Shown in pieces: positions 46,213-62,888 of a stretch of 64,000 nucleotides of DNA. Below the pieces are notes generated by a model. The model saw only the letters and a list, made by a program, of their open reading frames with translations, made no database searches and was not told where the DNA came from. The position numbers and the translations under genes are program-made. The stretch lies in the IMG/VR virus record IMGVR_UViG_3300034139_000007, positions 1 to 64,000 of that record. One strand, given 5' to 3'. The first letter of the stretch is position 1, and every line of letters begins with the position of its first letter. This DNA comes from a virus.

Positions 46213-46220
46213 GCCCCTGA

Positions 46221-46234
46221 TTTAACGGTTAAAG
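46221..46234 (-). promoter_or_regulatory. Motif A copy 1 (CTTTAACCGTTAAA), contains rIIB stop codon
   Basis: One of eight copies at gene junctions. Confidence 0.75.
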
Positions 46235-47416
46235 TCCCGCAGCGGTCTCGGCACGCTGCAGTCGATCGATCTGCGGCGGGGCACTGTCGGTCAGGCCCAG
46301 CTCCGCTTCGATCTCATCGAGACGATCCGACAGGGTCTTGTCGTCCCAGTCGCTGTCGTCGATGTTGAGCGTGGCGCGGAGACGCTCGACGCGGTCGGTG
46401 AAGCTGACCGGTGCGTCGTCACCGACAACCGGACCCAGGTCACCGCTCAGGTCGCGCATGGCCACCAGAGCCTCGACGCGAGAAGCATAGGTGTCCACGA
46501 CGGTGCCCGCGGGGTTCACAAGGTCCCATTGATCGCCGTCACGGTCGGCCCAGAGCACACGCCAGCCAGCGTCCCAGGCGGCCAGGGCCGGACCGCAATC
46601 CTCACCCTCGGGCAAGGCAAACTTGATGCCCTCACGCTGGTACAGGGCCACGCGGTCGTAGCTGAACACCAGCTGGTCCTCGCCCTCGAAGAAGACGCCC
46701 TCGCGGGCCTCCTGCATCGAGATCTCGAACAGCACCTCGTGCTTCTCGGTGCGGCCCTTGGAGCCGCCGCCGTCCTGCGGGAAAGACACGACGTCAGACG
46801 GGTCCTCGGCCATGATCAGGCAGCGATAGTCCGACATGCTCTTCAGGTACTTGTGATTGCAGAAGTGCAGGCCACGCGAGCAGGTGTTGTTGTAGTTGAG
46901 GTCGCACTCGTCGCGCGGCATCCGAACGATCCGACCCGGTGAGTTGTCCATGGACCTGGTGTGGGCGTCCAGGTACTGCATGTTGACGTACCGATAGGCC
47001 AGGAAGCGACCGTCCGGCAGGATCGGCAGCTCGGCCCGCTCGACCCACTGAAACAGCATGTCGATGGCGTCGCGGGTCGGGTTGCGCATGACGCGGTCCA
47101 GGAACAGCGCATACGGCTCCGGGTCGCGGCCACGGTTCACCATCTGGAGGATGCGGTCGACGAGGTAGTTGTCGACACGTCGGCCCTGGAAGGTGACGCG
47201 ACCGGCGAAGACGGTCACGTCGCCATAGTTGCCCAGGGCTTTGGTGAGGCGGTCCGAGGCGTTGACGATGCCGTCGACCTGGTCGTAGTCACCATTGGCG
47301 ATGGCCGTCTTCAGCTCCTCGTATCGAGGGTTGTCCGACGGAACCGTGAAGGGCCTGCCGGCCACGAACACGGTCACGCTGTCAGCGGACACGATTGAGA
47401 TCACAGGGTTAGTCAT
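46229..47416 (-). CDS. rIIB: RIIB-like protein
   Basis: LPILPDGRFLAYR, DNSPGRIVRMPR, TCSRGLHFC, PSDVVS.P. Confidence 0.88.
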   Translation of the reverse strand: MTNPVISIVSADSVTVFVAGRPFTVPSDNPRYEELKTAIANGDYDQVDGIVNASDRLTKALGNYGDVTVFAGRVTFQGRRVDNYLVDRILQMVNRGRDPEPYALFLDRVMRNPTRDAIDMLFQWVERAELPILPDGRFLAYRYVNMQYLDAHTRSMDNSPGRIVRMPRDECDLNYNNTCSRGLHFCNHKYLKSMSDYRCLIMAEDPSDVVSFPQDGGGSKGRTEKHEVLFEISMQEAREGVFFEGEDQLVFSYDRVALYQREGIKFALPEGEDCGPALAAWDAGWRVLWADRDGDQWDLVNPAGTVVDTYASRVEALVAMRDLSGDLGPVVGDDAPVSFTDRVERLRATLNIDDSDWDDKTLSDRLDEIEAELGLTDSAPPQIDRLQRAETAAGL

Positions 47417-49604
47417 TCAGCTTGGTCCTTCTGAATGCGGCGAGGGCGGGGACGTCCACGTCGCTGTAGTTGAAGATGTTTGTCTCGGTCCGTTCCCAGA
47501 TCGCGACGGCGAGGCGTAGTAGTGGAGATCGATTGTAGACTTTCTCGACCTCCTTGGCCACCGACACCCGCAGCTTCTTGGGTGTCGGCATGTCGAGCCC
47601 GGCACGACGGGCATAATCCCGGGCGTGATCGATCTCACGCTGGAGCGCGCTGGCATCCTCGGGAGCCTTGAGGGCTTCGAGGCGGGCCGTGATCGTCGGG
47701 AACAGGTCCGGGTGCCGGGTGGTCAGGCGGCGCACGGTCTTGGTGAGCTTGTCCTGATCGACCTGGGCCGCGGCGGCCTGACGGGCCAGCTCGGCCAGCA
47801 CATCCGGGTTACGGATGGTCAGATCGAACTTGGCCTTGAGCCAGACGTCCAGACGGATGAAGTCCGCCTGATTACCGTCGCGCTTGACCTGGGCCTGGGC
47901 CTTCTTGGACAGACCCAGCACCAGTTGGCCACCGTCGGTACGCCAGCTAGAGTTGATGACCTTGTTGTCGAAGCCGACCGTGTCGTCGATGTCGTGACCC
48001 GTAAGGGGGATGTAGACACCGGCGGTGGCCAGCTCGTCGGTCTGGTTCCAGTCCGAACGGCACCCGTGGTAGCGGTAGCCGCCATACTGGGTGCCAGGAG
48101 ACAGGGTCAGGACGCGCAGCTCGGTCTTCTTGCCGCTGGCCAGCTTGGTCTTGGGCTCTGGCAGGGGCAGCTCCGACAACAACATGATGTTCTGGTCAGA
48201 GTAGCGCCAGTCGGCGAAGTGGGCACGCATGGCCTCGATGGAAGGCCAGTTGGGCACATCGGCACCCTTGTGGTCGAGACGATGGTCGAACAGATAGACC
48301 GCCAGCTTTCTGACGCCCAGATCCTCGGCCAGTTGGCGAGCACGCGAGGTGACCCGGCGCTTGCTGTCGGACACGTCCTTCATGTCGTCAAAGACGAAGA
48401 ACCGGTTGTCGCGGAAGGCGTCGACCGGGAAGGTGTCCTTGACGTAGCGACTGAAGGTGACCTCGGTCTTGTCACTCTTCCAGGACTTGGGCTCGACGTT
48501 CAGGACCTGCGGGCGACCGTAGGGCAGGGCGATCTCGTCGCGGATGCCCGGGAAGCCAGCGTGCTGGACGATGTCGCGCATCACGATGCCGGGCTTGGCG
48601 TCGGCCTTGATCTCGGGCCACTTCTTGGTGATCATCGACCAGGTGTTGTTGTCCTTCAGCTTCTGGATGAACTCCAGCTGCTCGAAGGGGTTCATGGTCT
48701 TGACCAGCTCGAACTGCTGCTCGGCATAGTCGTCGCAGATCTGACGATACCGCTCGCGCAGCCGGGTCAGGGTCAGGGTGTCATACGACAGACCCTCACG
48801 GCTCGGCAGGAGGTCCAGCTCACCGATGCCGAACACCATGATGATGGTGCCGGGCAGCTTGGCGTCGCCCTCCTGGAGCACGATGCCCCAGTCCAGCGGG
48901 TAGGCGACCGGACCCATCAGGACGTAGGGCTTGGCCGGAGCCTCGGTGCGGACCCAGTAGTTGGACTTCTGATCGGTGTACTCGATCACCGGCACGTCAA
49001 TGCCGTGGACCTCGTAGCTGCCCAGCGGCAAGTGCTGCAGCAGGTCAGCGGCAGTGCTCTCGAAGACGCCCCAGTCGTTGGTCTTGATCGGGACCTGGAC
49101 CTGGATGCCGTCCGGCTCGTCGGTGGGCTGCTCATCGATGCGCGACATCTGAGGGATGCCGTCGCCGCCACGGTAGGCGGCGTAGCTGCGCTTGATGCCG
49201 GCCTGCACGGACGCCACGGTGAAGGCGTCGGCGTAGGCGAAGGGCGACTTGCAGCCCAGACCGAAGCCGCCGATGGCGTCGTCGCCCTGATCCTTGGTCG
49301 ATGCACCGAACGAGGTGTACATCAGCATCACGTCGTCGTCGCTCATGCCGGGGCCGTAGTCGCGGATCGTCAGCATCGGCTCGATGTGGTTGGGCAGGCT
49401 GATCAGGATCGGACGGGTCTGGCCGTTCATGCCGTGGGCGTCCAGTGCGTTGCACGAGATCTCACGGATGACGGCCCGGGGTTTGTCCGAGTAGAGCTTA
49501 TCGGCCAGGATGCTGAACATCTTGGCGTTGCCCTGGATGGTGAAGGCGGCAGTCGGCAGCTCGTCGCTGACCGAGACGTCTCTCTTGAAGGCATCGGAAC
49601 GCAT
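47409..49604 (-). CDS. rIIA: RIIA-like protein (GHKL ATPase N-terminus)
   Basis: LYSDKPRAVIREISCNALDAH, RDYGPGMS, STK, GGFGLGCKSPFAY. Confidence 0.9.
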   Translation of the reverse strand: MRSDAFKRDVSVSDELPTAAFTIQGNAKMFSILADKLYSDKPRAVIREISCNALDAHGMNGQTRPILISLPNHIEPMLTIRDYGPGMSDDDVMLMYTSFGASTKDQGDDAIGGFGLGCKSPFAYADAFTVASVQAGIKRSYAAYRGGDGIPQMSRIDEQPTDEPDGIQVQVPIKTNDWGVFESTAADLLQHLPLGSYEVHGIDVPVIEYTDQKSNYWVRTEAPAKPYVLMGPVAYPLDWGIVLQEGDAKLPGTIIMVFGIGELDLLPSREGLSYDTLTLTRLRERYRQICDDYAEQQFELVKTMNPFEQLEFIQKLKDNNTWSMITKKWPEIKADAKPGIVMRDIVQHAGFPGIRDEIALPYGRPQVLNVEPKSWKSDKTEVTFSRYVKDTFPVDAFRDNRFFVFDDMKDVSDSKRRVTSRARQLAEDLGVRKLAVYLFDHRLDHKGADVPNWPSIEAMRAHFADWRYSDQNIMLLSELPLPEPKTKLASGKKTELRVLTLSPGTQYGGYRYHGCRSDWNQTDELATAGVYIPLTGHDIDDTVGFDNKVINSSWRTDGGQLVLGLSKKAQAQVKRDGNQADFIRLDVWLKAKFDLTIRNPDVLAELARQAAAAQVDQDKLTKTVRRLTTRHPDLFPTITARLEALKAPEDASALQREIDHARDYARRAGLDMPTPKKLRVSVAKEVEKVYNRSPLLRLAVAIWERTETNIFNYSDVDVPALAAFRRTKLND

Positions 49605-49622
49605 GGTCGTATGTCCTTGCTT

Positions 49623-49636
49623 TTTAACGGTTAAAG
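49623..49636 (-). promoter_or_regulatory. Motif A copy 2 upstream of rIIA
   Basis: CTTTAACCGTTAAA then AAGCAAGGACATACGACCATG. Confidence 0.75.
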
Positions 49637-50110
49637 AATGGTGATGCGCGTTGCGCTGTGCACCAGGGTTTTGGCCTGGAACCCACGAGGCAGGGGAATG
49701 TCGGACCTGACATTGTAGGGGTGCTTCTGCCCGATCTCGGTGGAGAGACCCTCCACCCTGATGGCACGGCGAAGCCAGATCGTGTCGCGGCTTTCGTTGC
49801 GCACGTCAGCCTCGCGCAGCAGGGCCTCGATCCCCCGCCAGGTCCATTGTGAGGACCAGTCGACGGTTGGCTTCCTGGCGCTGGCGATGAGGATGTGTGG
49901 CTCATAGCCCAGCACCGGTAGGTCACGATCCGACATCTTCACCGCCGACCGAAGCTGGAGGTGGATGGGCAAGCACGACGCGCGGACAGTCAAGCCGTAA
50001 CGGGGCTTGCTGGTCGGCTCGGGCAGGAGCAGGCTGTTGTAGACGAAGTGGAAGACGTGGTCGCTCGGCCCCAGGTCGATGCAGAAGGGGATCGGATCTA
50101 CTTCGGACAT
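49631..50110 (-). CDS. Hypothetical protein
   Basis: GAGGAG RBS; stop codon lies inside motif A. Confidence 0.6.
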   Translation of the reverse strand: MSEVDPIPFCIDLGPSDHVFHFVYNSLLLPEPTSKPRYGLTVRASCLPIHLQLRSAVKMSDRDLPVLGYEPHILIASARKPTVDWSSQWTWRGIEALLREADVRNESRDTIWLRRAIRVEGLSTEIGQKHPYNVRSDIPLPRGFQAKTLVHSATRITIL

Positions 50111-50496
50111 GGGTCAATCTCCTCGAAGTCCAGCCCCTCGGACCACCACTCGCCGGCGGGGCCGCCACGCATCTCGATGTGGATGGTGCTGTTGGCACCG
50201 ACATGGACGACCGACAGCAGGCTGTTGCTCAGGTCGACGCCGGGGTGAGTGTCCACCTCGCTCTCACCGAACACGCCGTCCGTGTGGCGGTCGCGCAGCT
50301 CCTTGGAGGCGAACCCGTCGGTGGGCAGGGTCTCGGTCCACGGATGGCGCTCGAAGGCCGCCAGCGGCCACAGGACCTCGGAGAAGTCCCACTTGCCACA
50401 GACGCGGAGCGCCTCGGTCACGCGCTCGATGTCCAGGTCGAAGGAGATCAGCTGATCCTCTTCGTTTTCCTGCATCATGATCGTGTAGATTTTCAC
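50098..50496 (-). CDS. Hypothetical acidic protein
   Basis: GGAG RBS, GTGA overlap. Confidence 0.6.
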   Translation of the reverse strand: MKIYTIMMQENEEDQLISFDLDIERVTEALRVCGKWDFSEVLWPLAAFERHPWTETLPTDGFASKELRDRHTDGVFGESEVDTHPGVDLSNSLLSVVHVGANSTIHIEMRGGPAGEWWSEGLDFEEIDPCPK

Positions 50497-50705
50497 AGGT
50501 AGCTCTCCATGAGCTTGATGAAGGCGGGAAGGTCCGCCTTGGGGACTTCGATCTGGGCCGCCGTGGTGCGGTCGCCCTTGCTGTTGATCGGCATCAGCAC
50601 AATCTCGGTCGGGGTGTCGTAGCTGCCGACCCCTATCTGGGTGCCGGAACGGTTCCGGCCCCAGTAGGCGGCGGTGCGCTTGTCGCCGAAGAGGATGTCA
50701 GGCAT
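50493..50705 (-). CDS. Hypothetical protein
   Basis: In operon. Confidence 0.6.
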   Translation of the reverse strand: MPDILFGDKRTAAYWGRNRSGTQIGVGSYDTPTEIVLMPINSKGDRTTAAQIEVPKADLPAFIKLMESYL

Positions 50706-51120
50706 CGGCCTTCGGGGTCACGATCCAGCTGGTCGCGGCCTTGCTCGTCTTCTTGGCCGCCGACAGGATGCTGGCGGCCTTGGCCGCACCGATCTCGTCG
50801 ATCAGCAGCTTCATCAGGGCGTCCGGGTCGATCATCTCGCGACCGTTGGCGGTCTTGGCGAAGATCCGGTAGCTGTCGGTCTCGGCGAACTCGACCTGTT
50901 CGAGGCTGGGACGCTGCTCGGCATCGGTGATGATGCCCAGCTTCACGGCGGCGGTCTTGGCCTTCTTCTTGCGCGCCTCGGCCAGCGTGGCCAGGCTCAG
51001 CGCGGTCAACAGCTCGTGGGCCGCGAGGTCACGCTCGCCGCTCTCGGGCTTCGGCGCGGTGCCGTTGGTGGTGCCGATCTTCTTGAAGGCGGCAACGATT
51101 TTGTCGGTCAGGGTTCCCAT
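50698..51120 (-). CDS. Hypothetical protein
   Basis: GGAG RBS; Ala/Lys-rich. Confidence 0.7.
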   Translation of the reverse strand: MGTLTDKIVAAFKKIGTTNGTAPKPESGERDLAAHELLTALSLATLAEARKKKAKTAAVKLGIITDAEQRPSLEQVEFAETDSYRIFAKTANGREMIDPDALMKLLIDEIGAAKAASILSAAKKTSKAATSWIVTPKADA

Positions 51121-51398
51121 GGGTCTTCTCCATCTTGGGCTAGCGGGATTGCTTGGTCGAAAAAGTACAGCAGGGCGATGAGGTCGGACCGGTCGGCGAA
51201 CTTGTCGTCGCGGTCCTCGCCCTTCTGGACGCGGGCCAGCAGGTCGAGCGTGTACTCGATGCAGGCCTGCTGGTGGGTGGGGTTAGTCGGGGTCGCGTCG
51301 TTCAGGTAGAAGCTGTAGAAGCACGCCCCGAGATCCCCCACAGAGATATAGCTCCCCCATTGGGAGGCAATCTCGAAGGCTCTCTCGCGGGTAATCAT
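51108..51398 (-). CDS. Hypothetical protein
   Basis: CAAGGACTTCGACGATG start context. Confidence 0.65.
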   Translation of the reverse strand: MITRERAFEIASQWGSYISVGDLGACFYSFYLNDATPTNPTHQQACIEYTLDLLARVQKGEDRDDKFADRSDLIALLYFFDQAIPLAQDGEDPWEP

Positions 51399-51436
51399 CG
51401 TCGAAGTCCTTGTCTAACAGGGACTGCAGCGCAGGC

Positions 51437-51919
51437 TTATGCTGCAGCATTCGCCACCGCCTGAAGGAACTTGCCGTAGGCAGTGCCGTAGGCTTGGGTG
51501 GCGTGGGCCAGGTCGTGGGCCGCGGCTTGGAGGACGGCCTGGGCCTTGCTGATCTCGTCGGGGCCGTAGGCGACTTCCGCCTGTTCGGGCTCTTCGCCCT
51601 CGGTGCTGATCCAGCCGCCGGAGGCCAGCTTGGTGGCCACCTCGTCGAGGAAGTCGTTGAAGTCACCGATGAAACTTTTGACCTGATCGGGCATGTCGAT
51701 CCGGTACTCGAAGAACCCATCGACGACGGTCAGCTCCATCTGGTCATCCCAGTCGTAGTAGTTGCCCTCGTCGTCGGTTCTGGGCGGCGGGACGTCAGTG
51801 TCGTTTTCCCAGAAGCCAGCTCGGTCGCAGCCATGCTCCTTGAGCAGCTCGATGACGGTGGTGAGGGTGACGCCGTCCTTGAGGGGCACGACGCCGCGAT
51901 AATAGACTGGTCCAGCCAT
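51437..51919 (-). CDS. Hypothetical acidic protein
   Basis: AAGGA RBS. Confidence 0.7.
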   Translation of the reverse strand: MAGPVYYRGVVPLKDGVTLTTVIELLKEHGCDRAGFWENDTDVPPPRTDDEGNYYDWDDQMELTVVDGFFEYRIDMPDQVKSFIGDFNDFLDEVATKLASGGWISTEGEEPEQAEVAYGPDEISKAQAVLQAAAHDLAHATQAYGTAYGKFLQAVANAAA

Positions 51920-51946
51920 GGTCGAACTTTCCTTACGGTGAAGGTT

Positions 51947-51966
51947 GGGGTGGCCGAAGCCACCCC
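51947..51966 (-). other. UUCG-loop hairpin without U tract
   Basis: GGGGTGGC-TTCG-GCCACCCC. Confidence 0.7.
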
Positions 51967-51975
51967 GGTTTCAGA

Positions 51976-52869
51976 TCAGACGCCCAGCGTCGCCTTGACG
52001 GCGCGGACGTGCGGGGCCGAGCCGGTGAACGACTTGGCCAGGACGAACTGGAAGGCATCCCGGTCGCTGGCGATGGGACCATCGACGACGGCCAGGATGT
52101 TCTTGCCAGTGGGGCTCATCGCCCAGCCTTCGGACTGAGCCAGGTCGGCGTCAGCGGAGGCTTCCTCGATCTCCTCGATGCCGTCGATCTGGCGGTGGTG
52201 GTCGATCCACCCTGCCTTGACGGGCATGGCGTCGAAGATGGCCTGGGCCTGACGCTTGGCGTCGGACGGGGTCCTGGCGCTGACGATCACCGACCGCTCG
52301 GAATAGACCCGCGCGTCCTGGATCACCTTGTAGTTCACGACCGGCGGGGCAGTAGCGACACCGGCAGGCTGGACCGGCAGGGTGAACTGGTTGCCGATCT
52401 GCAGGCGGTAGGAAGGCTTGCCTTCACGCAACTCGACCGACACGACAGTGCCGATGGCACCGCGATCAGCCGTATTGGCAGCAGGCGGGACGGGGCTGTA
52501 GGTCGTGTCAGCCGTGTCGTACAGGTTCAGCTGCTGGAGGGTCTCCAGCTCGTCGCCGACCTTGAACTCGGCGTCGCCCAGCAGGATCATGGCGGCCAGC
52601 TCGCGGCAGTCATCGATGGTCAGGGTCTCGGCCTGGCCAGCGAGCCAGATCTGGATGGTGCCGTCTTCCAGAACCCACAGGCCGACAGGCAGGCGGTTCT
52701 GCGAGGCCCAGACGTTCTTGTCCGTCTTGAACGCCGGGGTGGCGACCTCGTCGGAGGCCAGGGCTTTGGCGAAGTTGGCGGCGTCTTCAGCGGACAGCTG
52801 GAGCGGGGCCGGCAGTTGGGGGTGAGCCAGGTCGAACCCAGCGTCGGTCTTGGTCAGAGTGATGTTCAT
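51976..52869 (-). CDS. Hypothetical protein
   Basis: AGGA RBS before ATG 52869 (MNITLT). Confidence 0.7.
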   Translation of the reverse strand: MNITLTKTDAGFDLAHPQLPAPLQLSAEDAANFAKALASDEVATPAFKTDKNVWASQNRLPVGLWVLEDGTIQIWLAGQAETLTIDDCRELAAMILLGDAEFKVGDELETLQQLNLYDTADTTYSPVPPAANTADRGAIGTVVSVELREGKPSYRLQIGNQFTLPVQPAGVATAPPVVNYKVIQDARVYSERSVIVSARTPSDAKRQAQAIFDAMPVKAGWIDHHRQIDGIEEIEEASADADLAQSEGWAMSPTGKNILAVVDGPIASDRDAFQFVLAKSFTGSAPHVRAVKATLGV

Positions 52870-52913
52870 CAGGGTGGTTCCTAGTTGATGGTTGGTACGC
52901 ACGACTACCTCCG

Positions 52914-53204
52914 TCAGGAGGATCTGGGGATGATGAGGGTCGCTTGGTTGATGACCATCAGGGCAGCGAGCCATGTGGTCATCCTCTGCACAACGTGGAT
53001 GGGGACGACGGGGTCGACGATCAGCACAGGGCCGAGCATCAGGCCGGTCGGTTCGAAGTAGAAGGGCCGGATGCCGGGTGTCATGACGGACATGGGGTCC
53101 GAGACCAGCAGGCCGATCCCGGCGACCTCCACACCCGTGACGTGGGCGGGAGGCTCGACCGTCCGCACCAGCTGCGTGCGGGGATCAATCAGGATTGCCG
53201 TCAT
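52914..53204 (-). CDS. Hypothetical protein
   Basis: GGAG RBS; AILIDP..V motif. Confidence 0.6.
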   Translation of the reverse strand: MTAILIDPRTQLVRTVEPPAHVTGVEVAGIGLLVSDPMSVMTPGIRPFYFEPTGLMLGPVLIVDPVVPIHVVQRMTTWLAALMVINQATLIIPRSS

Positions 53205-53556
53205 CGGGCAGCTCCAGACTGGGGTGCGGGCCGCTCAAGGTGTGACGGCGGCTGATGATGTAGTTGTAAGCCGCCACGCGGGCCTTAGGGAAGATGCCGG
53301 GCGTGGACCAGTCGAGGGTGGCGACCAGCTCGGGGACGAACTCGAAGTCGAAGGCCACGCGACCATCGTTGAAGTCGCCCTCGTTGATGACGTCGTAGAC
53401 CAGCTCGACCCATTTGGCGATGTCGAGGGCGTAGTCGCGCATGTCGAACGAGCCGCGGTTGCCCCACAAGGTATCGAGGCCGGGGCTCTTGTCGCGCTGG
53501 TCGATCATGGCCTCCCAGACGATCATGCCCGTGGTTGCGATAACGTCGGTGATCAT
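53185..53556 (-). CDS. Hypothetical protein
   Basis: ATG 5 nt after motif A; FDFEFVP. Confidence 0.65.
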   Translation of the reverse strand: MITDVIATTGMIVWEAMIDQRDKSPGLDTLWGNRGSFDMRDYALDIAKWVELVYDVINEGDFNDGRVAFDFEFVPELVATLDWSTPGIFPKARVAAYNYIISRRHTLSGPHPSLELPDDGNPD

Positions 53557-53561
53557 TGGAT

Positions 53562-53575
53562 TTTAACCGTTAAAG
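53562..53575 (-). promoter_or_regulatory. Motif A copy 3 (CTTTAACGGTTAAA)
   Basis: Directly follows hairpin 53577-53601 and precedes ATCCAATG. Confidence 0.75.
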
Positions 53576-53610
53576 TGGCCCACTCCGGGATGGAGCGGGC
53601 CGGGTTGTAG

Positions 53611-55421: not shown

Positions 55422-55425
55422 GGAT

Positions 55426-55439
55426 TTTACCCGTTAAAG
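55426..55439 (-). promoter_or_regulatory. Motif A copy 4 (CTTTAACGGGTAAA, one mismatch)
   Basis: Followed by ATCCATG. Confidence 0.7.
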
Positions 55440-55458
55440 TCTGAGGAAGGGGAAGGGT

Positions 55459-55482
55459 GGACCGGCCCCGAAGGGCCGGTCC
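55459..55482 (-). other. UUCG-loop hairpin without U tract
   Basis: GGACCGGCCC-TTCG-GGGCCGGTCC. Confidence 0.7.
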
Positions 55483-55494
55483 GGTGGCGGTCGA

Positions 55495-55902
55495 TCAGGC
55501 GTCGTCGTCGTCCTTCAGCGCGGCCAGCTGCTTCTGCAGGTCCGCGATGCTGGTGCCGGCCAGCTTCTCGGCTTCGGCGCGGGCCAGGGCGTCCGTCAGT
55601 GTGCGCTTCAGGTCGGCCTTGGCGGCGCGCTTGGTGGCGCGTTCGGCGTCCAGCTGCTTGTCGGCGATCACCTCGATCACCAGGTCCAGCGCGTCCTGGA
55701 GCAGGCCACGGCGGGGGTCCGGCGTGGTCTGGATGAAGCTCTCCTCCGTGATGGACTTCAGCTCCGCGTTGACGGCACGGGCGGTGGCGTCGAGATCGGG
55801 CAGCTTCAGATCGTAGAGCTGCTCGGCAGTCAACGGGCCGCGGGTGGAGTTGAAGCGCGTCTTGCGACGGGCAGCGAGTTTGAACAGGTTCTTGTCAGTC
55901 AT
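55495..55902 (-). CDS. Conserved coiled-coil phage protein (partner of 667-aa protein)
   Basis: LF..A.R.K.RF.S.RG.L..EQL.DL..EESF. Confidence 0.75.
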   Translation of the reverse strand: MTDKNLFKLAARRKTRFNSTRGPLTAEQLYDLKLPDLDATARAVNAELKSITEESFIQTTPDPRRGLLQDALDLVIEVIADKQLDAERATKRAAKADLKRTLTDALARAEAEKLAGTSIADLQKQLAALKDDDDA

Positions 55903-55911
55903 GGGTGGTTC

Positions 55912-57915
55912 CTAGAACTGGATTTCGTAGGCGCGACCATCCGCGACTACGGTGAGGGTGTTCCTCTGGGTGGAAGAGAAGCCCAGCCCGGACAGCTGGT
56001 CTTCGGCGAAGGGAGCCTTGGTCTTGGCCCCCAGCACCTCGAACACCTTGCGGTGCTCATGCAGGTCCGGTCGCAGGTACTCGTTGTAGATCCCACGGAC
56101 CGGGTCCGGGTTCTGCACCCCGCGAAGGATGAAGAACCAGTGCTTGTTGCCGATGGCCTGCCCGTTCCAGTGGTTCGGGCTGAGCATCAGCGTGTCGACC
56201 GGCACCAGCGTCTCGGTGGTGATGCCCCAACGCTTCTGGCTGCTGGTGGTGGTCGGATGCTTGTGGTCGATGGTCCACGCCCCGTCCTTGAGCGTGGCGA
56301 CGGCCAGGGTAAGCCACTCCTTGTGCGCGAGGGGCTCGGGGTGGTCGTACTGGTAGACCTGCCCGCCGACCTCGATCTCGGCCTTGAAGCCGGATGTGGT
56401 CGGGGCGCGGTTGTGCCAGTTGTGGATCTTGAAGACGTACTGGCCGTCGCGCAACTTGGCCAGGTCGGGGAAGGTGATGTTCTCGACGGGGACATAGCCC
56501 TCCGGCGCAGGCTGGGTGTAGTCGACGTCCTGAACCCCGCCCGACATGCGGTCGTTTCTCGCGTTCCAGCCGACGCGCTGGCCGACCGGATAGCCGTCGT
56601 GGCGACCATCCTGATGCGGCGTCGCGCCGGGCATGAAGACGTGCAGGTCCATCAGGCTGGCATTGCGGCCCACGTCATTCCATAGGTGGGAGAAGCGCAG
56701 GACGCCATCCACCCGTCCGCCGGCCATCGCCACCCGCTGGCGCAGGGTGCTGTCGGTCACGTCGCCGTCGTAGGACCAGCTGAAGCCATTGGCCCACGGG
56801 AACAGGCCCTCGTCGCCCTGGGTGATCGACATGAAGTTGCCGAGGTGCCGGTTCTCGACCAGCGCGCTGATCGACTTGTGCGACTTGGCGAAGAAGTCGG
56901 CGGCGGCGATGAGCGTCGGGTTGTCGATCTTGACCTTGGACAGGGTGGCAGCAGGCATCAGCAGGTCAGCCAGGCTGTCCTTCATCTTGCTGGCCACGGT
57001 GTTGTCGACGAACAGGACGTCGTTGACCGACACATCGGTGATGCGAGCATGGCGGCGAGTGATCGCGCCGCGCAGGCCGAGTTCGTCGACCTTGGCCAGA
57101 GCCTGCTCGATCATGCGGGGCGTGACGAGGGCCGAGGGGCGCTTGTAGTTGGCCGGGGCGACCATCCTCTCGTACTTCTTGACCGCGATTTCCAGCTCGG
57201 TCCCTTCGGACAGCTCCAGCAGCAGCTGGCCGATGGCCGTGTTGCGGAACCGGGCCGACTTGTCGTCCAGGTTCGACCAGATCAGCAGGTCGGTGCCGTC
57301 CCAGCTGGCCTTCAGACTGCGGAAGGCCTTGATCGCGGGCAGAAACTCCTCGCCCTTGTACAGGTTGTTGGCCTCGGCCAGGTCGATCACGGTGTCGAGG
57401 GCATCGAGACTGATCTCGATCAGGCCACGCTTCAGGACCTGAGCGGTCGTGTTGATCTTGCCCCGCACCTCGTCCGGGCTGGTCGAGAAGTGCTTGTCAG
57501 CCACCGACCCCGAGAAGTGATCCCAGGTCCTGACGGTGTTGTCGGGCAGCAGCTCGTTGGAGGTGGCGTTGCCGTACTTGCGCTCCTTGGTGCGCCAGAC
57601 CGACTTGATCGGCGCTTGGCGGACGCGGTCGGCCAGGATCTTGGTGACCTGATCGTAGGGGAAGGGCGGCGTGACGTCCCAGACGGTCTGGACTTGGCCG
57701 TCGATGATGGCGACCACGTTGCCGATGTTGCGGATGAACTGCTTGCAGCAGGAGCAGTCGTGCTCGGTGCGCTCACGGAACAGAGGGTTGGTGCCCTCGG
57801 GGAAGGCCGACAGGTAGGTGGCGAACAGGTCCTCGGTGTCGACGACGAACAGCTCGTGTTGGCGCATCGCCTCGTACCGCTTGTGAACGAGGTCGGAGAA
57901 GTCTTTGAATGACAT
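55912..57915 (-). CDS. Large conserved phage protein (667 aa) with HxCxCC motif and YfaP-like segment
   Basis: ERTEHDCSCCKQFIR, APANYKRP, MDLHV..DVD..PVENI, SPNHW..GNKHWFF, HRKVFE, QLSGLGFSST. Confidence 0.8.
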   Translation of the reverse strand: MSFKDFSDLVHKRYEAMRQHELFVVDTEDLFATYLSAFPEGTNPLFRERTEHDCSCCKQFIRNIGNVVAIIDGQVQTVWDVTPPFPYDQVTKILADRVRQAPIKSVWRTKERKYGNATSNELLPDNTVRTWDHFSGSVADKHFSTSPDEVRGKINTTAQVLKRGLIEISLDALDTVIDLAEANNLYKGEEFLPAIKAFRSLKASWDGTDLLIWSNLDDKSARFRNTAIGQLLLELSEGTELEIAVKKYERMVAPANYKRPSALVTPRMIEQALAKVDELGLRGAITRRHARITDVSVNDVLFVDNTVASKMKDSLADLLMPAATLSKVKIDNPTLIAAADFFAKSHKSISALVENRHLGNFMSITQGDEGLFPWANGFSWSYDGDVTDSTLRQRVAMAGGRVDGVLRFSHLWNDVGRNASLMDLHVFMPGATPHQDGRHDGYPVGQRVGWNARNDRMSGGVQDVDYTQPAPEGYVPVENITFPDLAKLRDGQYVFKIHNWHNRAPTTSGFKAEIEVGGQVYQYDHPEPLAHKEWLTLAVATLKDGAWTIDHKHPTTTSSQKRWGITTETLVPVDTLMLSPNHWNGQAIGNKHWFFILRGVQNPDPVRGIYNEYLRPDLHEHRKVFEVLGAKTKAPFAEDQLSGLGFSSTQRNTLTVVADGRAYEIQF

Positions 57916-57920
57916 GGTAT

Positions 57921-57934
57921 TTTAACCGTTAAAG
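57921..57934 (-). promoter_or_regulatory. Motif A copy 5 (CTTTAACGGTTAAA)
   Basis: Fills the gap between stop at 57935 and ATACCATG. Confidence 0.75.
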
Positions 57935-58291
57935 TCAGTCGACAACGTCGATCTGGGTTGATGATTTGATGGTGGTGCGGCGGTCGCCATCGTAGCTGAC
58001 GACGATGCCGAGGACTTCGCCCTTGAGCCAGCCGCGGCCTTTGCGCCAGTGGCTGACCTTGCTGCCGAGGCGCGGGGTGCGCTGGCCCATCTTGTGGGTT
58101 GGGGAGAAGCCCAGCTCGAACCACTTCTGGTACCAGTGCAGGCGGGTCGCCTCGTTGTCCTCGTAGTGAACCTGCTCATCCAGCGCGTAGAGCGTGCCGA
58201 AGAGGCTCATCTGCTGGCCGTTGCCGCCGCTGATCATCTTCTTCAGCAGGCGGCACAGCAGCCAGTGCTCGACCTTGGTCAGGGCGGCCAT
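57935..58291 (-). CDS. Hypothetical protein
   Basis: In operon; Y.EDN..T motif. Confidence 0.6.
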   Translation of the reverse strand: MAALTKVEHWLLCRLLKKMISGGNGQQMSLFGTLYALDEQVHYEDNEATRLHWYQKWFELGFSPTHKMGQRTPRLGSKVSHWRKGRGWLKGEVLGIVVSYDGDRRTTIKSSTQIDVVD

Positions 58292-58294
58292 GGC

Positions 58295-58648
58295 TCACCA
58301 GATGTCCGAGGACAGCAGGTCGCGTCCGACAGTGAGCCACTGCTTGGTCAGCTGGCCGCTGGCGACGCCGATCTCCTTGGCCTGCTCGCGGGTCACGAAC
58401 CGGTTGTTCGAGGTCCAGAAGCCGTAGGTGTCGGTGACGTCAGCCGTGTAGGGTTGGTCCCGGCCCAGGTTGACGCGCAGGTCAGAGTGCGACTTGAACC
58501 CATGGTGCAGGTTCCCTTGGGCGTCGACCAGGGCGCAGGCCATGATCATCTCGGGGTCGGTGTGGACTTTCGAGGTGTCCATCCGTGGCAGTTGGGCGGC
58601 GTTCTTGGCCATCGCCTTCTGCTCGCGGCGTCGGTCGGCTCGGGTCAT
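58295..58648 (-). CDS. Hypothetical phage protein
   Basis: H..GFWTS..RFVTREQA..GQL..LSSDIW; ATGA overlap at 58648. Confidence 0.7.
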   Translation of the reverse strand: MTRADRRREQKAMAKNAAQLPRMDTSKVHTDPEMIMACALVDAQGNLHHGFKSHSDLRVNLGRDQPYTADVTDTYGFWTSNNRFVTREQAKEIGVASGQLTKQWLTVGRDLLSSDIW

Positions 58649-58899
58649 GCGGGCATCCTGTAAATGAGGCGTTCCAGCTCTTGCAGCTGGAGACGCGCGT
58701 TGGTGACGCGGCGAAGCGCCTCGTCGCGGGTATCGGTGCCTTCCTTGGCGTCCAGCTCGATCATCAGGAAGATGAACAGCGTGTCGCCCTGGGTGCGGCA
58801 CTCGTCGAGGGTCTGGACGTGGGCATAGTCGCCCCCACCGTAGTTGTCCGCGACCAGGCGCTGGAAGGGGTTCAGCGGCGCTGGCTTGGGCTTGGGCAC
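58645..58899 (-). CDS. Hypothetical protein
   Basis: GGAGGAG RBS before GTG 58899; YGGGD..GDTLF.F..EL. Confidence 0.65.
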   Translation of the reverse strand: MPKPKPAPLNPFQRLVADNYGGGDYAHVQTLDECRTQGDTLFIFLMIELDAKEGTDTRDEALRRVTNARLQLQELERLIYRMPA

Positions 58900-59138
58900 A
58901 GCTCCTCCAGTGGCGTGGTCGCGGACGCCTTCTCGACGATGGGATAGCTGCCGTGGATGGTCCGCATGTAGCGGTCCCCGGTCAGCGGATCGAGCCAGAT
59001 GGTCTGGCTGGCGCTGCACACCCGCAGGACCTCAAGACGCTTGCGCGTCTCGTGGTCGTTGACCTGCTGCTGGGTCGGGGGTGCGGTGCAGGCGGTCAGT
59101 CCTGCGAGGAGGACAAGGATGGCTTGATGACGTCCCAC
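58872..59138 (-). CDS. Putative lipoprotein
   Basis: AILVLLAGLTA-C lipobox. Confidence 0.55.
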   Translation of the reverse strand: MGRHQAILVLLAGLTACTAPPTQQQVNDHETRKRLEVLRVCSASQTIWLDPLTGDRYMRTIHGSYPIVEKASATTPLEELCPSPSQRR

Positions 59139-59542
59139 TTCACTTCTCCAGTTTCGATCAGGTGGTTCAGGACCACGGCGGCCTGTTCCGGGGTGGCTTG
59201 GTAGTAGCCGCTGCTGTCGCGGTCGCCGATTGGCGCGGCGTCGAACACGGGCGGGTAGAACAGCTGGCCAGCCTGGCCGCCGATCACCACCGGGGTGGGT
59301 TCGTGGTTCAGCCCCAGATAATCCGCGGCAATGACCTCGATCTCCTCGCTGTCATTGCCCCGATAGCCGGCGGCATAGGCCGCCCAGCCAGCGATGCAGG
59401 CCGTGGTGTTGCAGGTGTGCAGGTTTTCGAGCGTGGCGTCGTAGCGGCCTCTGGGATTGTAGACCAGGTACGACATGTTGAAGTGCTGGGGCGCATCCAG
59501 GATCAGATCCCGGACATGAGCGATGTTCGCTTTATTCAGCAT
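59096..59542 (-). CDS. CxTxACIAGWA-family protein, paralog 1
   Basis: FNM..CNTTACIAGWA..YLGL..LF..LIETGEVKW. Confidence 0.75.
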   Translation of the reverse strand: MLNKANIAHVRDLILDAPQHFNMSYLVYNPRGRYDATLENLHTCNTTACIAGWAAYAAGYRGNDSEEIEVIAADYLGLNHEPTPVVIGGQAGQLFYPPVFDAAPIGDRDSSGYYQATPEQAAVVLNHLIETGEVKWDVIKPSLSSSQD

Positions 59543-59822
59543 CGGGAACGATCCTGACGAGACGACGGCCTTCGGGCTCTTCGTCGATGATGATGGTGGC
59601 CTTGCCGGTCAGCAAAGCTGACACGCCAGTGAGGATCGCGTCGAACATCTGTTCGCGGTTCTCTTCCTGCTGGCGGCGGGCGGCCTGTTGCATTTCGTAG
59701 TCACGCATCTCGGTTTCTCTCCTTGCCTGCCTTGCGGCGTCGGCGTTGTGGCGTTTCCAGGCTCGGCGGCGGTTACGACCGGGCTTCAATGTCCGCCTCG
59801 ACCTGAGCCACGGTGCTGGCAC
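59532..59822 (-). CDS. Hypothetical basic protein
   Basis: In operon; true start probably TTG near 59789. Confidence 0.5.
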   Translation of the reverse strand: MPAPWLRSRRTLKPGRNRRRAWKRHNADAARQARRETEMRDYEMQQAARRQQEENREQMFDAILTGVSALLTGKATIIIDEEPEGRRLVRIVPDAE

Positions 59823-59916
59823 CGTTTTGCACGGCGACAGCCGCGAGGCGGTGGCGGGCTCGGTCGGGGGAGCGGAACTGGTTCACCAGATCGGCGCGTT
59901 GGGCGTTGGTCAGCAT
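59773..59916 (-). CDS. 47-aa micro-protein (absent from ORF track)
   Basis: MLTNAQRADLVNQFRSPDRARHRLAAVAVQNGASTVAQVEADIEARS; leader nearly identical to the rIIA leader. Confidence 0.7.
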   Translation of the reverse strand: MLTNAQRADLVNQFRSPDRARHRLAAVAVQNGASTVAQVEADIEARS

Positions 59917-59933
59917 GGTCGTAAGTCCTTGTT

Positions 59934-59947
59934 TTTAACGGTTAAAG
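59934..59947 (-). promoter_or_regulatory. Motif A copy 6 (CTTTAACCGTTAAA)
   Basis: Followed by AACAAGGACTTACGACCATG. Confidence 0.75.
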
Positions 59948-59961
59948 TGGAGGGTGGAGGG

Positions 59962-60363
59962 TCAGTCTTTGAAGATCTCGGCGGGGTCCAGCTCGCCGTG
60001 GAGGACCTGGCGCAGTTCCTCCAGGATCTTGGGTCGCACTTGGCCCGCGGCGTCGGTGGCCTCGTCGTGGGTGTTCTGCAGATTGCAGATCAACTGCAGC
60101 TCGGCAGGGTCGCAGGTCAGGATCGGATCATCCTCCATGGTCAGCAGGGTGCTGATGGCCGAGGCGTTGTGGCCCCGCTTGTCGATGATCGCGAAGACCT
60201 CGTCGGGGATGGCCGCGCCGACCACGCAGGGCAGCTTAGTGAAAGGGTCGCGGTAGGTGCACGCGCCGACCCCGTTCTGGGCCTGTAGCCGCTCCTCGTC
60301 GAAGGCCTTGCGGCCAGCTTCGATGATGTTGGCGACGGTCAGGTGGAAGGGGGCAGCGGTCAC
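59962..60363 (-). CDS. Hypothetical phage protein (C.Y..CVVG..LQ..HD family)
   Basis: CTYR..PCVVGAAI..LQNTHD. Confidence 0.7.
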   Translation of the reverse strand: MTAAPFHLTVANIIEAGRKAFDEERLQAQNGVGACTYRDPFTKLPCVVGAAIPDEVFAIIDKRGHNASAISTLLTMEDDPILTCDPAELQLICNLQNTHDEATDAAGQVRPKILEELRQVLHGELDPAEIFKD

Positions 60364-60719
60364 CAGTTCAGTTCCTTTTCGATGCGGGTCGGCCAGGTGG
60401 GGAGCGCGTTGCCTTGGATGAGGCTGTCGATGGCCGCCAGGGTGGTGGGTTTGTCGATCTTGCCGATGGCTTGCGGGCCGAGGTGCGACAGGAACAGGTA
60501 GTTGGCCTGCTGCGGGGTCAGGCCCAGAAAGTCGCGAGCCTGGGCCAGGCTGGGGGCGGCAGGGGTGTAGTCGGGCATCGCGGTGCAGGCCCAGCCAGCG
60601 ATGCAGCGAGGGCTCCCGCAGTCCTTGGGGTTGCCGACCTCTCGCATGTCGACGAGGGCGTCGGGGGCGTCGGCGATCAGGCCGCGGACCAGGGTGAAGT
60701 TGGCGATGTTCAGGGCCAT
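60360..60719 (-). CDS. CxTxACIAGWA-family protein, paralog 2
   Basis: CGSPRCIAGWA..FLGLT..LF..W. Confidence 0.75.
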   Translation of the reverse strand: MALNIANFTLVRGLIADAPDALVDMREVGNPKDCGSPRCIAGWACTAMPDYTPAAPSLAQARDFLGLTPQQANYLFLSHLGPQAIGKIDKPTTLAAIDSLIQGNALPTWPTRIEKELNW

Positions 60720-61096
60720 TGGACTTCTCCGGTTTCGGCGAGCCGGCGCAGGGTCGCGACGGCTTGGGCTTGGGTGATGCTGGCCCAGTCGAGATCAGGC
60801 ATGAAGAGTTGCTCGATCAGATGCTGATCGTCATCGATGCCCAACCATTTGGCTGCAGCGTTGGTGGGGTCGCCGGTCAGGCCGAGGCGGACATCGACCC
60901 GCTCCCCGGGAGGGGTGGCGAGAGCCTGCGCCCAACCGCCGATGCAGGCGCACGTCCCACAGTCGTGGATCAGGTCCGCGGCAGTGACCATCGCCGCTTC
61001 ATTGCCGACTTGGGTGGCCCAGAAGCGCATGTTGAACCGTTCGGGCGGCAGGGCCTCGATCAGGTTGGCCAGGAGGGTGATGTTTTGAGTATTCAT
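60710..61096 (-). CDS. CxTxACIAGWA-family protein, paralog 3
   Basis: FNM..CGTCACIGGWA..WLGI..LF..LAETGEVQW. Confidence 0.75.
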   Translation of the reverse strand: MNTQNITLLANLIEALPPERFNMRFWATQVGNEAAMVTAADLIHDCGTCACIGGWAQALATPPGERVDVRLGLTGDPTNAAAKWLGIDDDQHLIEQLFMPDLDWASITQAQAVATLRRLAETGEVQWP

Positions 61097-61116
61097 CGGA
61101 GATGACCCAGTCTTTG

Positions 61117-61130
61117 TTTAACGGTTAAAG
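61117..61130 (-). promoter_or_regulatory. Motif A copy 7 (CTTTAACCGTTAAA)
   Basis: 2 nt after upstream stop codon. Confidence 0.75.
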
Positions 61131-61132
61131 TA

Positions 61133-61390
61133 TCAGGCTCGACGTTCGAGGCGAGCGACCGGAGTGGTGGCAGGCTGGTCCTGCACGATGGTGACCTGGG
61201 CGCGGAACGTCGGCCCGACCTGCCACAGCTGGAACGCGCGGTGGGTCCGCTCGGTGAGTGCGCCTTGGCCGGTCTTCTGGGCCGAGGCGTAGCTCATTTT
61301 CAGGGGCTGGCCGTCGTTGCCGGTGAAGGCCTCGAAGCGTTCGGGGCCGGTGTTCGGGCACAGGGCCAGGATGTAGGTTTCGGCGCTCAT
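61133..61390 (-). CDS. Hypothetical protein
   Basis: AGGA RBS, ATGA overlap at 61390. Confidence 0.6.
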   Translation of the reverse strand: MSAETYILALCPNTGPERFEAFTGNDGQPLKMSYASAQKTGQGALTERTHRAFQLWQVGPTFRAQVTIVQDQPATTPVARLERRA

Positions 61391-61896
61391 TGGGCGGGTT
61401 CCTGTTGACACATGGGGGTGGTGGCCAGCTCGATGATGCCGACCTTGCCGTCAGCCGTGGTGGCGCTGATGATGCCGACGAGCCGGTCCTGCTCATCGAC
61501 GACCGCGCCGCCGGACATGCCTGGCTCGGGGGTGCGAGATGGGTCCGCGCCACGTAGGTTGTAGGTGATTTGGGTCGGGGCGACGCGGACATCGTATCGC
61601 GTGTCGATGGCGCGGACTGTGGATCTGGCCCGGGAGCCTATGAGGCGATACGTCTCGTTGGTGGTGATCGGGGCGCAGCTGACGGTCATCTGGCGCTGGA
61701 AGGGCCGGTCGGGGTCCGTGGTGAGGATGACCACGTCGCTGTCGGCGTCCTGGTAGACGATGGTCGCGGACCTGTTGTCGATGATGCAGGTGTCGTTTTG
61801 GAAGACGTGCGCTGCTGAAATGACGGTGTTCGGGGCGATGACCACGCCGGAGCCGAAGCCCATGGCGCAGCTGATCAGAACGACTTCGATACCCAT
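61387..61896 (-). CDS. Trypsin-like serine protease
   Basis: GSGVVI..SAAHV, D.DVVIL, PGMSGG..LVGI catalytic triad motifs. Confidence 0.88.
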   Translation of the reverse strand: MGIEVVLISCAMGFGSGVVIAPNTVISAAHVFQNDTCIIDNRSATIVYQDADSDVVILTTDPDRPFQRQMTVSCAPITTNETYRLIGSRARSTVRAIDTRYDVRVAPTQITYNLRGADPSRTPEPGMSGGAVVDEQDRLVGIISATTADGKVGIIELATTPMCQQEPAQ

Positions 61897-61913
61897 GGTG
61901 TGAGGCCTTTTGG

Positions 61914-62315
61914 TTAGTGGATGGGGGGCGCGAGGTAGGTCCGCGTCGCCTCGAATGAGGTTGAAATCCAGTTGTCGACCGACTGGCGAAGCTCCAGGTT
62001 CTGCGCGTCGGTCAGCTGCAGTTCCTTGGTTATGTGATCGACATACTGGACCAGATTGGCCAGATCGCCGACGTAGCTGTCGTGGTGCTCGACGCCCTGG
62101 GTGTCGATGAAGTCAGCTCTCAGCTCACCGTTCACGGACACGATGGGGCGGCTCGTATAGCGGGCGGGGGCGGCTGCGGGGTGCGGTGGCAAGTCCCGCG
62201 CTGCGAGGATTTGGGCATGGAGCGAGTTCACCGATGGACCCCACATGAGCCGCGTGTCGAGGTCCATGGCGAAGAGCTGCTTCGCGGACTGGGGTCGGAG
62301 GGGTGGGAGTTTCAT
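61914..62315 (-). CDS. Hypothetical protein
   Basis: ORF on the coding strand filling the gap. Confidence 0.55.
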   Translation of the reverse strand: MKLPPLRPQSAKQLFAMDLDTRLMWGPSVNSLHAQILAARDLPPHPAAAPARYTSRPIVSVNGELRADFIDTQGVEHHDSYVGDLANLVQYVDHITKELQLTDAQNLELRQSVDNWISTSFEATRTYLAPPIH

Positions 62316-62395
62316 TGGGAGGGTCGCTCGTGGTGGAGGGTGGAGGGGTGCCCGGTCCTGTTTCGTGGCGCGCAGACCGGGCTATGATGCGCCTG

Positions 62396-62881
62396 TCAGC
62401 TAGGCCATGTGTCACCTCCGGGGTCGTAAGGGAGTGCGCGAGCGTGCTTCAGGACGCCGGCGATAGCGGGGAGAGGCAGGTTCAGGTGGAGGGGCTCGCC
62501 GTCGTTCAGATGGACGATGGTCCAGTAGAAGGCGTTCGAGCGTTTCTCGCTGATCGTGAACTCGGTCGTATACATGTCCAGCTGTTCGATGCCCGCGACT
62601 TTCAGCCCTAGCAGCAGGGCGTTGGCGTTGCCGTGGCGGGCGAAATACTGGCGGATCGTGTCGGGGTAGAAGACCGCGAGGCCGGCACCCTGGGCGCAGA
62701 AGCAGGGGGTCTGGTTGTCGAACTTCACCATCACCCCCGTGGCTTTGATAGTGGCCGGATCTTCGAGGGCGGTCATCCAAGCGTCAAAAGCAGTCTGGTC
62801 GGCTTGGCTGAGTTCTCGTGTCAGGCTCGACTGTTGCGATGGTTCGAGGCTTTCGAAGATTTCTTTGGGAGAGTTTAACAT
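62396..62881 (-). CDS. Hypothetical protein (CFCAQG..LND family)
   Basis: ATG 62881 lies inside motif A copy 8. Confidence 0.6.
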   Translation of the reverse strand: MLNSPKEIFESLEPSQQSSLTRELSQADQTAFDAWMTALEDPATIKATGVMVKFDNQTPCFCAQGAGLAVFYPDTIRQYFARHGNANALLLGLKVAGIEQLDMYTTEFTISEKRSNAFYWTIVHLNDGEPLHLNLPLPAIAGVLKHARALPYDPGGDTWPS

Positions 62882-62888
62882 GTTAAAG
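62874..62888 (-). promoter_or_regulatory. Motif A copy 8, 14-bp variant (CTTTAACATGTTAAA)
   Basis: Contains both the upstream TAA and the downstream ATG. Confidence 0.6.

Follow-up and report, generated by a model that had tools for sequence, protein, structure and literature searches.

A lineage-specific palindrome at the early-gene junctions of a Seuss-like phage: candidate operators for a putative phage factor

The stoperators of L5 and the other Cluster A mycobacteriophages are asymmetric sites that occur in one orientation and are bound by gp71, the immunity repressor of the temperate phage, and the 17-bp conserved inverted repeats (CIRs) of the temperate Streptomyces phage phiC31 are likewise bound by a repressor, the c protein. 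Elements of another kind come from Cluster K, where the SAS has an asymmetric consensus, GGGATAGGAGCCC, always with a Shine-Dalgarno sequence inside, and the ESAS consists of 17-bp imperfect repeats with a spacer of 4-13 bp that are subcluster-specific and have no RNA-hairpin support (PMC3203893, in which stoperators are mentioned as well; PMC12699233). Here we describe a 13-bp palindrome, motif A (TTTAAC[S]GTTAAA, where S is G or C), at the early-gene junctions of the phage represented by the 80,820-bp IMG/VR virus record IMGVR_UViG_3300034139_000007; the first 64 kb of this record are referred to as the window, and the whole record was scanned as well. Motif A is real and strongly selected, and the explanation that we tentatively prefer is that its copies are operators on duplex DNA for a putative phage protein that would gate the early arm of the genome.

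A pattern search of the window, with dinucleotide shuffles as the expectation, recovers every site listed in the original prediction: six exact copies (46221, 49623, 53562, 57921, 59934 and 61117), a one-mismatch copy (55426) and a 14-mer variant with an AT centre, TTTAACATGTTAAA (62874). The exact and near copies of the 13-mer thus number seven, against 0.00 expected, and the window yields no further match even when up to three mismatches are allowed, which bears out the earlier statement that no full copy exists between 1 and 46 kb. The element had also been described as always located at a gene junction, and all eight window sites indeed lie between minus-strand genes. The window cuts the array because four further sites (64226, 64481, 64587 and 65271) sit past its edge. 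The 12 sites of the whole 80.8-kb genome span 46.2-65.3 kb, each at a minus-strand gene junction, within a run of minus-strand genes that extends from ~22 kb to 69 kb, and the structural, lysis and replication parts of the genome contain zero sites. The non-coding share of the early region is ~9% by crude gene calls, and the base composition of the window is 64% G+C.

The half-sites of motif A are conserved in a relative, the IMG/VR contig G001 (54,944 bp), the proteins of which share 82% (primase), ~80% (replication proteins) and 35-65% (early proteins) identity with those encoded here. G001 carries 13 sites with the same half-sites, all within its first 20 kb. Conservation in related phages had been named beforehand as a test of the original prediction, and at nine orthologous junctions 107 of the 108 half-site positions are identical, as against 38-41% in the ungapped 20-nt flanks (Fisher p about 3e-34). 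The centres of the G001 orthologous sites differ in both base and length (C, G, T, AT, CG, GG and AG). The variant TTTAAC-G-GGTAAA is found once here (55426) and five times in G001, including the orthologous site 12473, and one G001 site reads TTTACC-C-GTTAAA. The recurrent variants alter one half only, and the resulting oppositions are A.G or C.U, never G.U; such variants without compensation therefore fit degeneracy of the half-site, not base pairing.

The study genome is also syntenic with that of the Caulobacter siphophage Seuss (NC_047757), with protein identity of 25-83%. When Seuss was searched for motif A with up to two mismatches, none was found; at homologous junctions it carries a palindrome of its own, TTTACCT[S]AGGTAAA, with a centre of up to 3 bp. 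This palindrome also precedes Seuss gp116, and its positions are as follows:

Seuss 84905 and 84107: palindromes ahead of the first two terminal-repeat genes
Seuss 82486: palindrome
Seuss 76122: palindrome ahead of the homologue of the 667-aa DUF8224 gene (site 57921 here)
Seuss 68938: palindrome ahead of rIIA (site 49623 here)

A degenerate half-site, TTTAMC, accounts for every site and also for the two Seuss halves, TTTACC and GGTAAA. Two more distant phages of the same genome type, with primase identity of 41-43%, have yet other palindromes: Achromobacter phage JWF carries GTTCGT[W]ACGAAC at 10 early junctions (JWF 68996-81390), and Xylophilus phage Lumi carries TTACT-N5-AGTAA at about 14 places (Lumi 58217-82651), including a tandem pair 27 nt apart ahead of gene 117. 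The palindrome arms are invariant within a genome, and between lineages both arms change together. To judge from these sequences, near-perfectly conserved half-sites around a free centre point to recognition by a protein. The confinement to the early arm, the excess of half-site over flank conservation and the relatives' own palindromes together support the earlier proposal that the early region has a control system of its own.

The operator explanation that we tentatively prefer can be spelled out as a chain of events. The 12 sites would serve as protein-docking sites on duplex DNA, in which a free centre of 1-2 bp is flanked by two inverted half-sites, TTTAMC and GKTAAA. They would line the early arm between the presumed terminal repeat and the hairpin that follows rIIB, and each would mark either the 5' edge of a gene or the approach to a terminator-like hairpin. 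A sequence-specific factor, probably phage-encoded and probably dimeric, would bind these sites and, once bound, would gate or shut down the early genes in the manner of an operator or roadblock array. The specificity of this factor would co-evolve with the sites, which would explain the presence of a different palindrome at these junctions in every related phage. A broader possibility, about which we are more doubtful, is that a regulatory layer is common to the Seuss/JWF-like siphophages, whose genomes are about 80 kb long and have long terminal repeats. In this layer, a fast-evolving putative factor would read a lineage-private palindrome and control the genes concerned as one regulon, perhaps acting both on DNA and in the ribosome-binding region of the mRNA; the palindromes of this factor would then stand at selected early-gene starts and also ahead of two terminators, that of the first gene and that of the early arm as a whole.

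Several observations weigh against operators on duplex DNA. The Pfam scan found one DNA-binding protein only, a 148-aa protein with two helix-turn-helix (HTH) regions that is likelier to be tied to another palindrome, motif B (see below). The centre measures 1-2 bp here, can reach 3 bp in Seuss and differs even at orthologous sites; such variation would be poorly tolerated by a rigid dimer and better by a hairpin loop. Placement beside a start codon is not needed by a DNA roadblock and would be expected of an element that acts on RNA or translation. Furthermore, no promoters were located, scans with sigma-70 and terminator consensus sequences having scored no higher than shuffles.

The likely position of the array relative to the physical end of the genome is suggested by comparison with Seuss, which has a terminal repeat of 1,748 bp (PMC4591317) and a long, leftward early arm that starts within the right copy of this repeat. 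The non-coding segment 65240-65640 can be aligned, via the blocks GGGTGTAC.CCTTC and GGTATTCTTAGT, to G001 and to the extreme right end of Seuss. Because the stretch at 65.3-65.5 kb matches the right end of Seuss, the study contig is probably a permuted assembly in which the terminal repeat has been collapsed at about 63.6-65.5 kb. With a physical end in this interval, site 65271 would precede the first gene entering the cell, and the array would reach from the terminal repeat as far as the hairpin that follows rIIB. The large open reading frames (ORFs) of the genome encode a tape-measure protein, a gpJ-like tip protein, a primase-helicase, a family-A DNA polymerase, an SbcC-like protein, a ribonucleotide reductase and a helicase; an RNA polymerase was looked for among the large ORFs and none was found.

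The sites of the study genome, with the centres given on the mRNA strand, and the hairpin that follows the last of them are these:

46221-46233, minus strand: motif A site, C-centred (CG at G001 19990); contains the TAA stop of rIIB (46229-47416); last site of the array
46191-46220, minus strand: hairpin with a 13-bp stem directly after site 46221; context minimum free energy -37.9 kcal/mol; kept after G001 19990
49623-49635, minus strand: motif A site, C-centred (T at G001 16496); contains the upstream TAA; then AAGGA, with the rIIA ATG 18 nt downstream
53562-53574, minus strand: motif A site, G-centred (G001 orthologue 14660); ATG 5 nt downstream
55426-55438, minus strand: variant motif A site TTTAACGGGTAAA with the right half GGTAAA; ATG 4 nt downstream; hairpin before the site
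57921-57933, minus strand: motif A site, G-centred (AG at G001 10067); ATG of the 667-aa DUF8224 gene 5 nt downstream
59934-59946, minus strand: motif A site, C-centred; AAGGA, then ATG 17 nt downstream
61117-61129, minus strand: motif A site, C-centred; ATG 20 nt downstream
62874-62887, minus strand: 14-mer TTTAACATGTTAAA; the left arm contains the TAA of gene 62883-63506; centre ATG at 62881, with AGGA 8 nt upstream
64226, minus strand: second AT-centred 14-mer, same as 62874 (G001 orthologue 3666); GGAG 8 nt upstream of its ATG
64481, minus strand: motif A site, G-centred (CG at G001 3422); 12-nt leader with AAGG
64587, minus strand: motif A site, G-centred (G001 orthologue 3301); two strong hairpins follow
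65271, minus strand: motif A site, G-centred (C at G001 2601); leader of ~29 nt

The hairpin at 46191-46220 likely marks the end of the early unit. Two conserved pairs of sites, 46221/G001 19990 and 64587/G001 3301, precede terminator-like hairpins rather than genes. Neither a role at start codons nor a promoter would account for them, but a factor that strengthens or adjusts termination where units end would. In both 14-mers, the ATG at the centre is the likely start codon, with a Shine-Dalgarno sequence (AGGA or GGAG) exactly 8 nt upstream, and the preceding TAA lies in the left arm. ATG 62881 is probably the start of the gene annotated at 62396-62941, the longest-ORF start being probably wrong. 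The palindrome corrects several gene starts in this manner. The minus-strand gene annotated at 45871-46212 probably starts at ATG 46173, past the hairpin, and not at the longest-ORF start. Among the early genes, the minus-strand segment 61387-61896 of the window encodes a trypsin-like serine peptidase domain (PF13365, E 1e-11), and the mosaicism of the early arm extends down to individual genes, the window segment 57934-58295 being swapped in wastewater metagenome contigs.

How motif A relates to translation was the subject of several statements in the original prediction, and these fared differently. The stop codon of the upstream gene is supplied by three window copies, as claimed (TAA inside 46221, 49623 and 62874), the G-centred window copies (53562, 55426 and 57921) are followed by ATG 4-5 nt later, and the AAGGA reported in two C-centred leaders is found after 49623 and 59934, with ATG 17-18 nt past the motif. 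The polarity ascribed to a 5' C holds for all eight window copies on the mRNA strand but for only 10 of the 12 sites genome-wide, and at the orthologous G001 sites the 5' flank is mostly T rather than C. The proposed rule that the central base tracks the type of translation start breaks 600 nt past the window edge, where three G-centred sites (64481, 64587 and 65271) lack an immediate start codon, and the Fisher p for centre against start type, 0.029 for the seven sites of the window (n=7), becomes 0.20 when the genome is considered (n=10). Nor does the central base behave as a switch, given that both its identity and the length of the centre change at orthologous sites. What does emerge from the two genomes is that the centre, read on the mRNA strand, is rich in G at each of the eight sites with an immediate ATG (G, GG or AG, or GGG in the variant), which puts GG or AGG 8-10 nt ahead of the ATG, whereas the centres of the long-leader sites are C (six), G (four), CG (two) and T (one); the Fisher p for this association is 0.005, with orthologous sites being non-independent. 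The simplest reading would be that the free centre serves as a weak Shine-Dalgarno sequence where there is no room for another, that is, a translational constraint and not a switch within the motif. Among the 25 sites of both genomes, ATG follows the motif after 3-5 nt in eight and is contained in the motif in three, and the rest are located 12-32 nt before an ATG or ahead of hairpins. In long intergenic gaps, motif A adjoins the downstream start codon (3-6 nt), away from the upstream stop. The motif of the study genome has no internal Shine-Dalgarno sequence, whereas the Seuss palindrome contains one (GAGG), 1-6 nt before the ATG.

Wider searches with the elements of this locus yielded little. 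An IMG/VR search for related loci with rIIA as the query found nothing, and an IMG/VR 15-mer scan returned only scattered single matches in unrelated AT-rich contigs. A search of the literature for the motif strings produced no occurrence apart from primers, the Seuss palindrome is absent from the announcement of that phage, and the papers on Lumi and TCUP2199, in which JWF is discussed, are silent on palindromes. The palindrome and its family-wide turnover in Seuss/JWF-like phages appear to be undescribed in the literature searched. An enriched 8-mer of the study genome, CAACTAC, was considered as a signal and dismissed as mere Asn-Tyr codon usage.

The minus-strand segment 55495-57915 of the window encodes a pair of proteins, of 667 aa (DUF8224, PHROG 1735) and 135 aa (PHROG 2018), that is conserved across thousands of phage contigs, the G+C contents of which differ greatly; the pair lacks both a sequence match in the PDB and a named relative. 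None of 160 loci linked to the DUF8224 protein contains motif A, Logan contigs encode DUF8224 proteins that are 71-78% identical, and no match to the DUF8224 protein was detected in the searched parts of JWF and Lumi. This protein was also considered as a hidden RNA polymerase or as the cognate factor and was set aside, having no PDB or named match. An unrelated 123-kb contig, L007 (65% G+C), which has only the DUF8224 pair and two weakly similar proteins in common with the study phage, carries about 11 copies of TTGCAGGAATGCAAA at L007:683-20895, all in the direction of the genes and each directly 5' of a Shine-Dalgarno sequence, often behind a terminator hairpin.

Could a protein encoded by this phage be the factor that recognizes motif A? 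Pfam and PHROGs scans of essentially all proteins encoded between 41 and 69 kb predict a sole DNA-binding protein, which is a candidate regulator and no more, and a second palindrome family, motif B (TRTCYASTRGAYA, also 13 bp), has eight copies at operon borders:

42641-43087, minus strand: 148-aa double-HTH protein; three-helix HTH at the N terminus, Cro/C1-type (Xre-like) HTH at the C terminus
17157, 19439, 25058, 39669, 43108 and 63526 of the window, 73565 and 80779 of the genome: motif B copies

The double-HTH protein is kept through the family along with a 228-aa neighbour, and its C-terminal recognition helix is identical here and in G001, has three differences in Seuss and is widely divergent in JWF and Lumi, a pattern that agrees with co-evolution with the palindromes and equally with plain divergence. 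The AlphaFold2 model of this protein is confident for residues 7-52 only. Motif B borders lysis, nucleotide, replication and structural operons and is kept in G001 at orthologous places; in Seuss it is absent in the TRTCYASTRGAYA form. Because a motif B or motif-B-like site precedes the gene of the double-HTH protein in both genomes (20 nt upstream here), the more natural pairing would be autoregulation of this protein via motif B rather than service at motif A. The first protein of the terminal repeat (218 aa) was considered as a DNA binder as well and discarded: it is predicted to be all-helical (pLDDT 77), with no PDB fold match.

The alternatives to operators on duplex DNA can be sought at the level of RNA or at that of transcription initiation. 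A phage protein might clamp a weak stem-loop or cut near the ribosome-binding site and so repress or process the early messages, a function that would resemble those of T4 RegA or RegB or of the MS2 coat-protein operator. Such a start-associated RNA operator would sit well with the location of the sites beside start codons, with the ATG centred in the 14-mers 8 nt downstream of a Shine-Dalgarno sequence, with the eight sites that are followed by ATG after 3-5 nt, with the Shine-Dalgarno sequence within the Seuss motif and with the transcribed sense of every site, and a 1-3 nt centre that is free in sequence and length would suit a loop of 3-4 nt. We nevertheless consider it rather unlikely: the stability of the stem is 0.0 kcal/mol here and only -2.8 kcal/mol in Seuss, the stem is invariant across sites without covariation, and the six to seven variants break a pair by A.G or C.U, never by G.U; besides, the distance from motif to ATG ranges from within the motif to about 30 nt, two conserved sites lead into hairpins instead of genes, and the protein scans recognized neither an RNA-binding protein nor a nuclease. 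The same free energy and the same uncompensated variants, incompatible with wobble, weigh against a hairpin that folds by itself, and an Rfam search with motif A gave no match. Folded as single-stranded DNA, the motif reaches -0.5 kcal/mol (z about -0.2), no better than shuffles; this value, and the failure to find a polymerase among the large ORFs, do not fit a promoter of the N4 type, that is, a stable DNA hairpin of 5-7 bp with a 3-nt loop used by a virion RNA polymerase. More conventional phage-specific early promoters, in which the motif, or its right half as an extended -10 element (GnTAAAAT), would recruit the host RNA polymerase, perhaps with a phage factor, have some appeal because terminator-like hairpins precede several sites (e.g. 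55426, 64481 and Seuss 68938), the right arm with its flank reads G-T-TAAAAT here, a scan scored 64226 as TTCACT-16-TAAAAT with TG, and the first site stands ahead of the first gene beside the presumed genome end. However, the 14-mers contain the ATG, other sites have it 3-5 nt further on, and the Seuss motif includes the Shine-Dalgarno sequence, so that a transcript start at any fixed distance would remove ribosome-binding sites or start codons. Moreover, there is no conserved -35 element upstream of the sites, the right arms in JWF, Lumi and the L007 family are unlike a -10 element, a phage RNA polymerase was not found among the large ORFs, and sigma-70-like promoters are not enriched. On these sequence grounds, motif A as a promoter core is disfavoured, and we regard this role as improbable.

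Equally improbable, in our assessment, is that the palindromes are primarily recombination anchors, short joints at which relatives that infect the same cell swap early genes, a role that has been proposed for the PeSL cassettes of T4-type phages. This idea derives from a wastewater relative (~90% identical) that has 152 unrelated bases in place of gene 57935-58291, with a breakpoint at 57934, the base adjoining site 57921-57933, and from the many replacements of early-arm genes between the study genome and G001 in which the motif stays in place. Yet the far end of the swapped gene is an ordinary gene boundary, most of the other breakpoints among those listed fall within genes, away from sites, and 13 bases are short for homologous exchange; the near-perfect conservation of half-sites around a free centre indicates recognition by a protein, and swapping may be a by-product. 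Gene swapping at motif A sites looks secondary. Finally, the phage could have recruited a regulator of its host, for instance CtrA or a nucleoid protein, to which the sites would then belong, given that the TTAAC half-site is like that of CtrA and that dense arrays of host-factor sites are found in other phages (PMC9437464). CtrA, which the original prediction had listed for a binding check, requires TTAA-N7-TTAA (PMC9437464), whereas the sites here have TTAA-N3-TTAA or TTAA-N4-TTAA with inverted halves, and Seuss infects Caulobacter crescentus and yet has a palindrome without TTAA; CtrA is rejected on account of both the spacing and the Seuss motif. Since the sequence differs in every lineage, a better fit is a co-evolving phage factor than a conserved host protein, and recruitment of a host factor seems to us very improbable.

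If the sites are indeed operators of one phage factor, they would delimit the early regulon in a family that has received little study and in which almost all early genes have no assigned function; Seuss, JWF, Lumi, related Acinetobacter phages and many metagenomic relatives belong to it. Motif A would then provide a handle for finding the regulator, for timing the early-to-middle switch and for building orthogonal phage-specific switches in high-GC hosts.

In comparison with the known systems, motif A is like the stoperators in being a 13-bp, lineage-specific site that is present in many copies in the short intergenic gaps of transcribed non-structural genes, and its putative role would parallel the presumed one of stoperators, the silencing of a long genome arm by one protein. 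Unlike the stoperators, motif A is a perfect 6+1+6 palindrome with a free centre, the lone asymmetry of which, the 5' C, is lost at the orthologous sites of G001; and unlike the temperate phages that carry stoperators, the phage studied here belongs to a family with long terminal repeats, and neither an integrase nor an immunity repressor was seen in its genome. Of the three mechanisms originally offered, the promoter and the self-folding RNA hairpin are disfavoured, and the operator or roadblock survives only in the sense of "works like", because the L5 stoperators are asymmetric and motif A is palindromic. The phiC31 CIRs are likewise inverted repeats at many early-region loci that function as operators for one phage protein, although at 17 bp, with a known repressor and in a temperate phage, they differ from motif A. 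With the SAS and ESAS elements motif A shares confinement to the non-structural half of the genome, the occasional inclusion of the previous stop codon, conservation ahead of genes from different families and a function that is putative. The Cluster K elements stand immediately 5' of start codons, at 3-7 bp, and a comparable spacing of 3-5 nt is seen at eight of the 25 motif A sites of the two genomes; here, however, a single compact palindrome of 13-15 bp does both jobs, 0 to about 30 nt from the ATG, and, unlike the SAS, it is palindromic and differs in sequence from GGGATAGGAGCCC. Motif A therefore resembles both stoperators and SAS/ESAS but belongs to neither, as the defining asymmetry and sequence fail, and it is with these systems that its mode of action is best compared.

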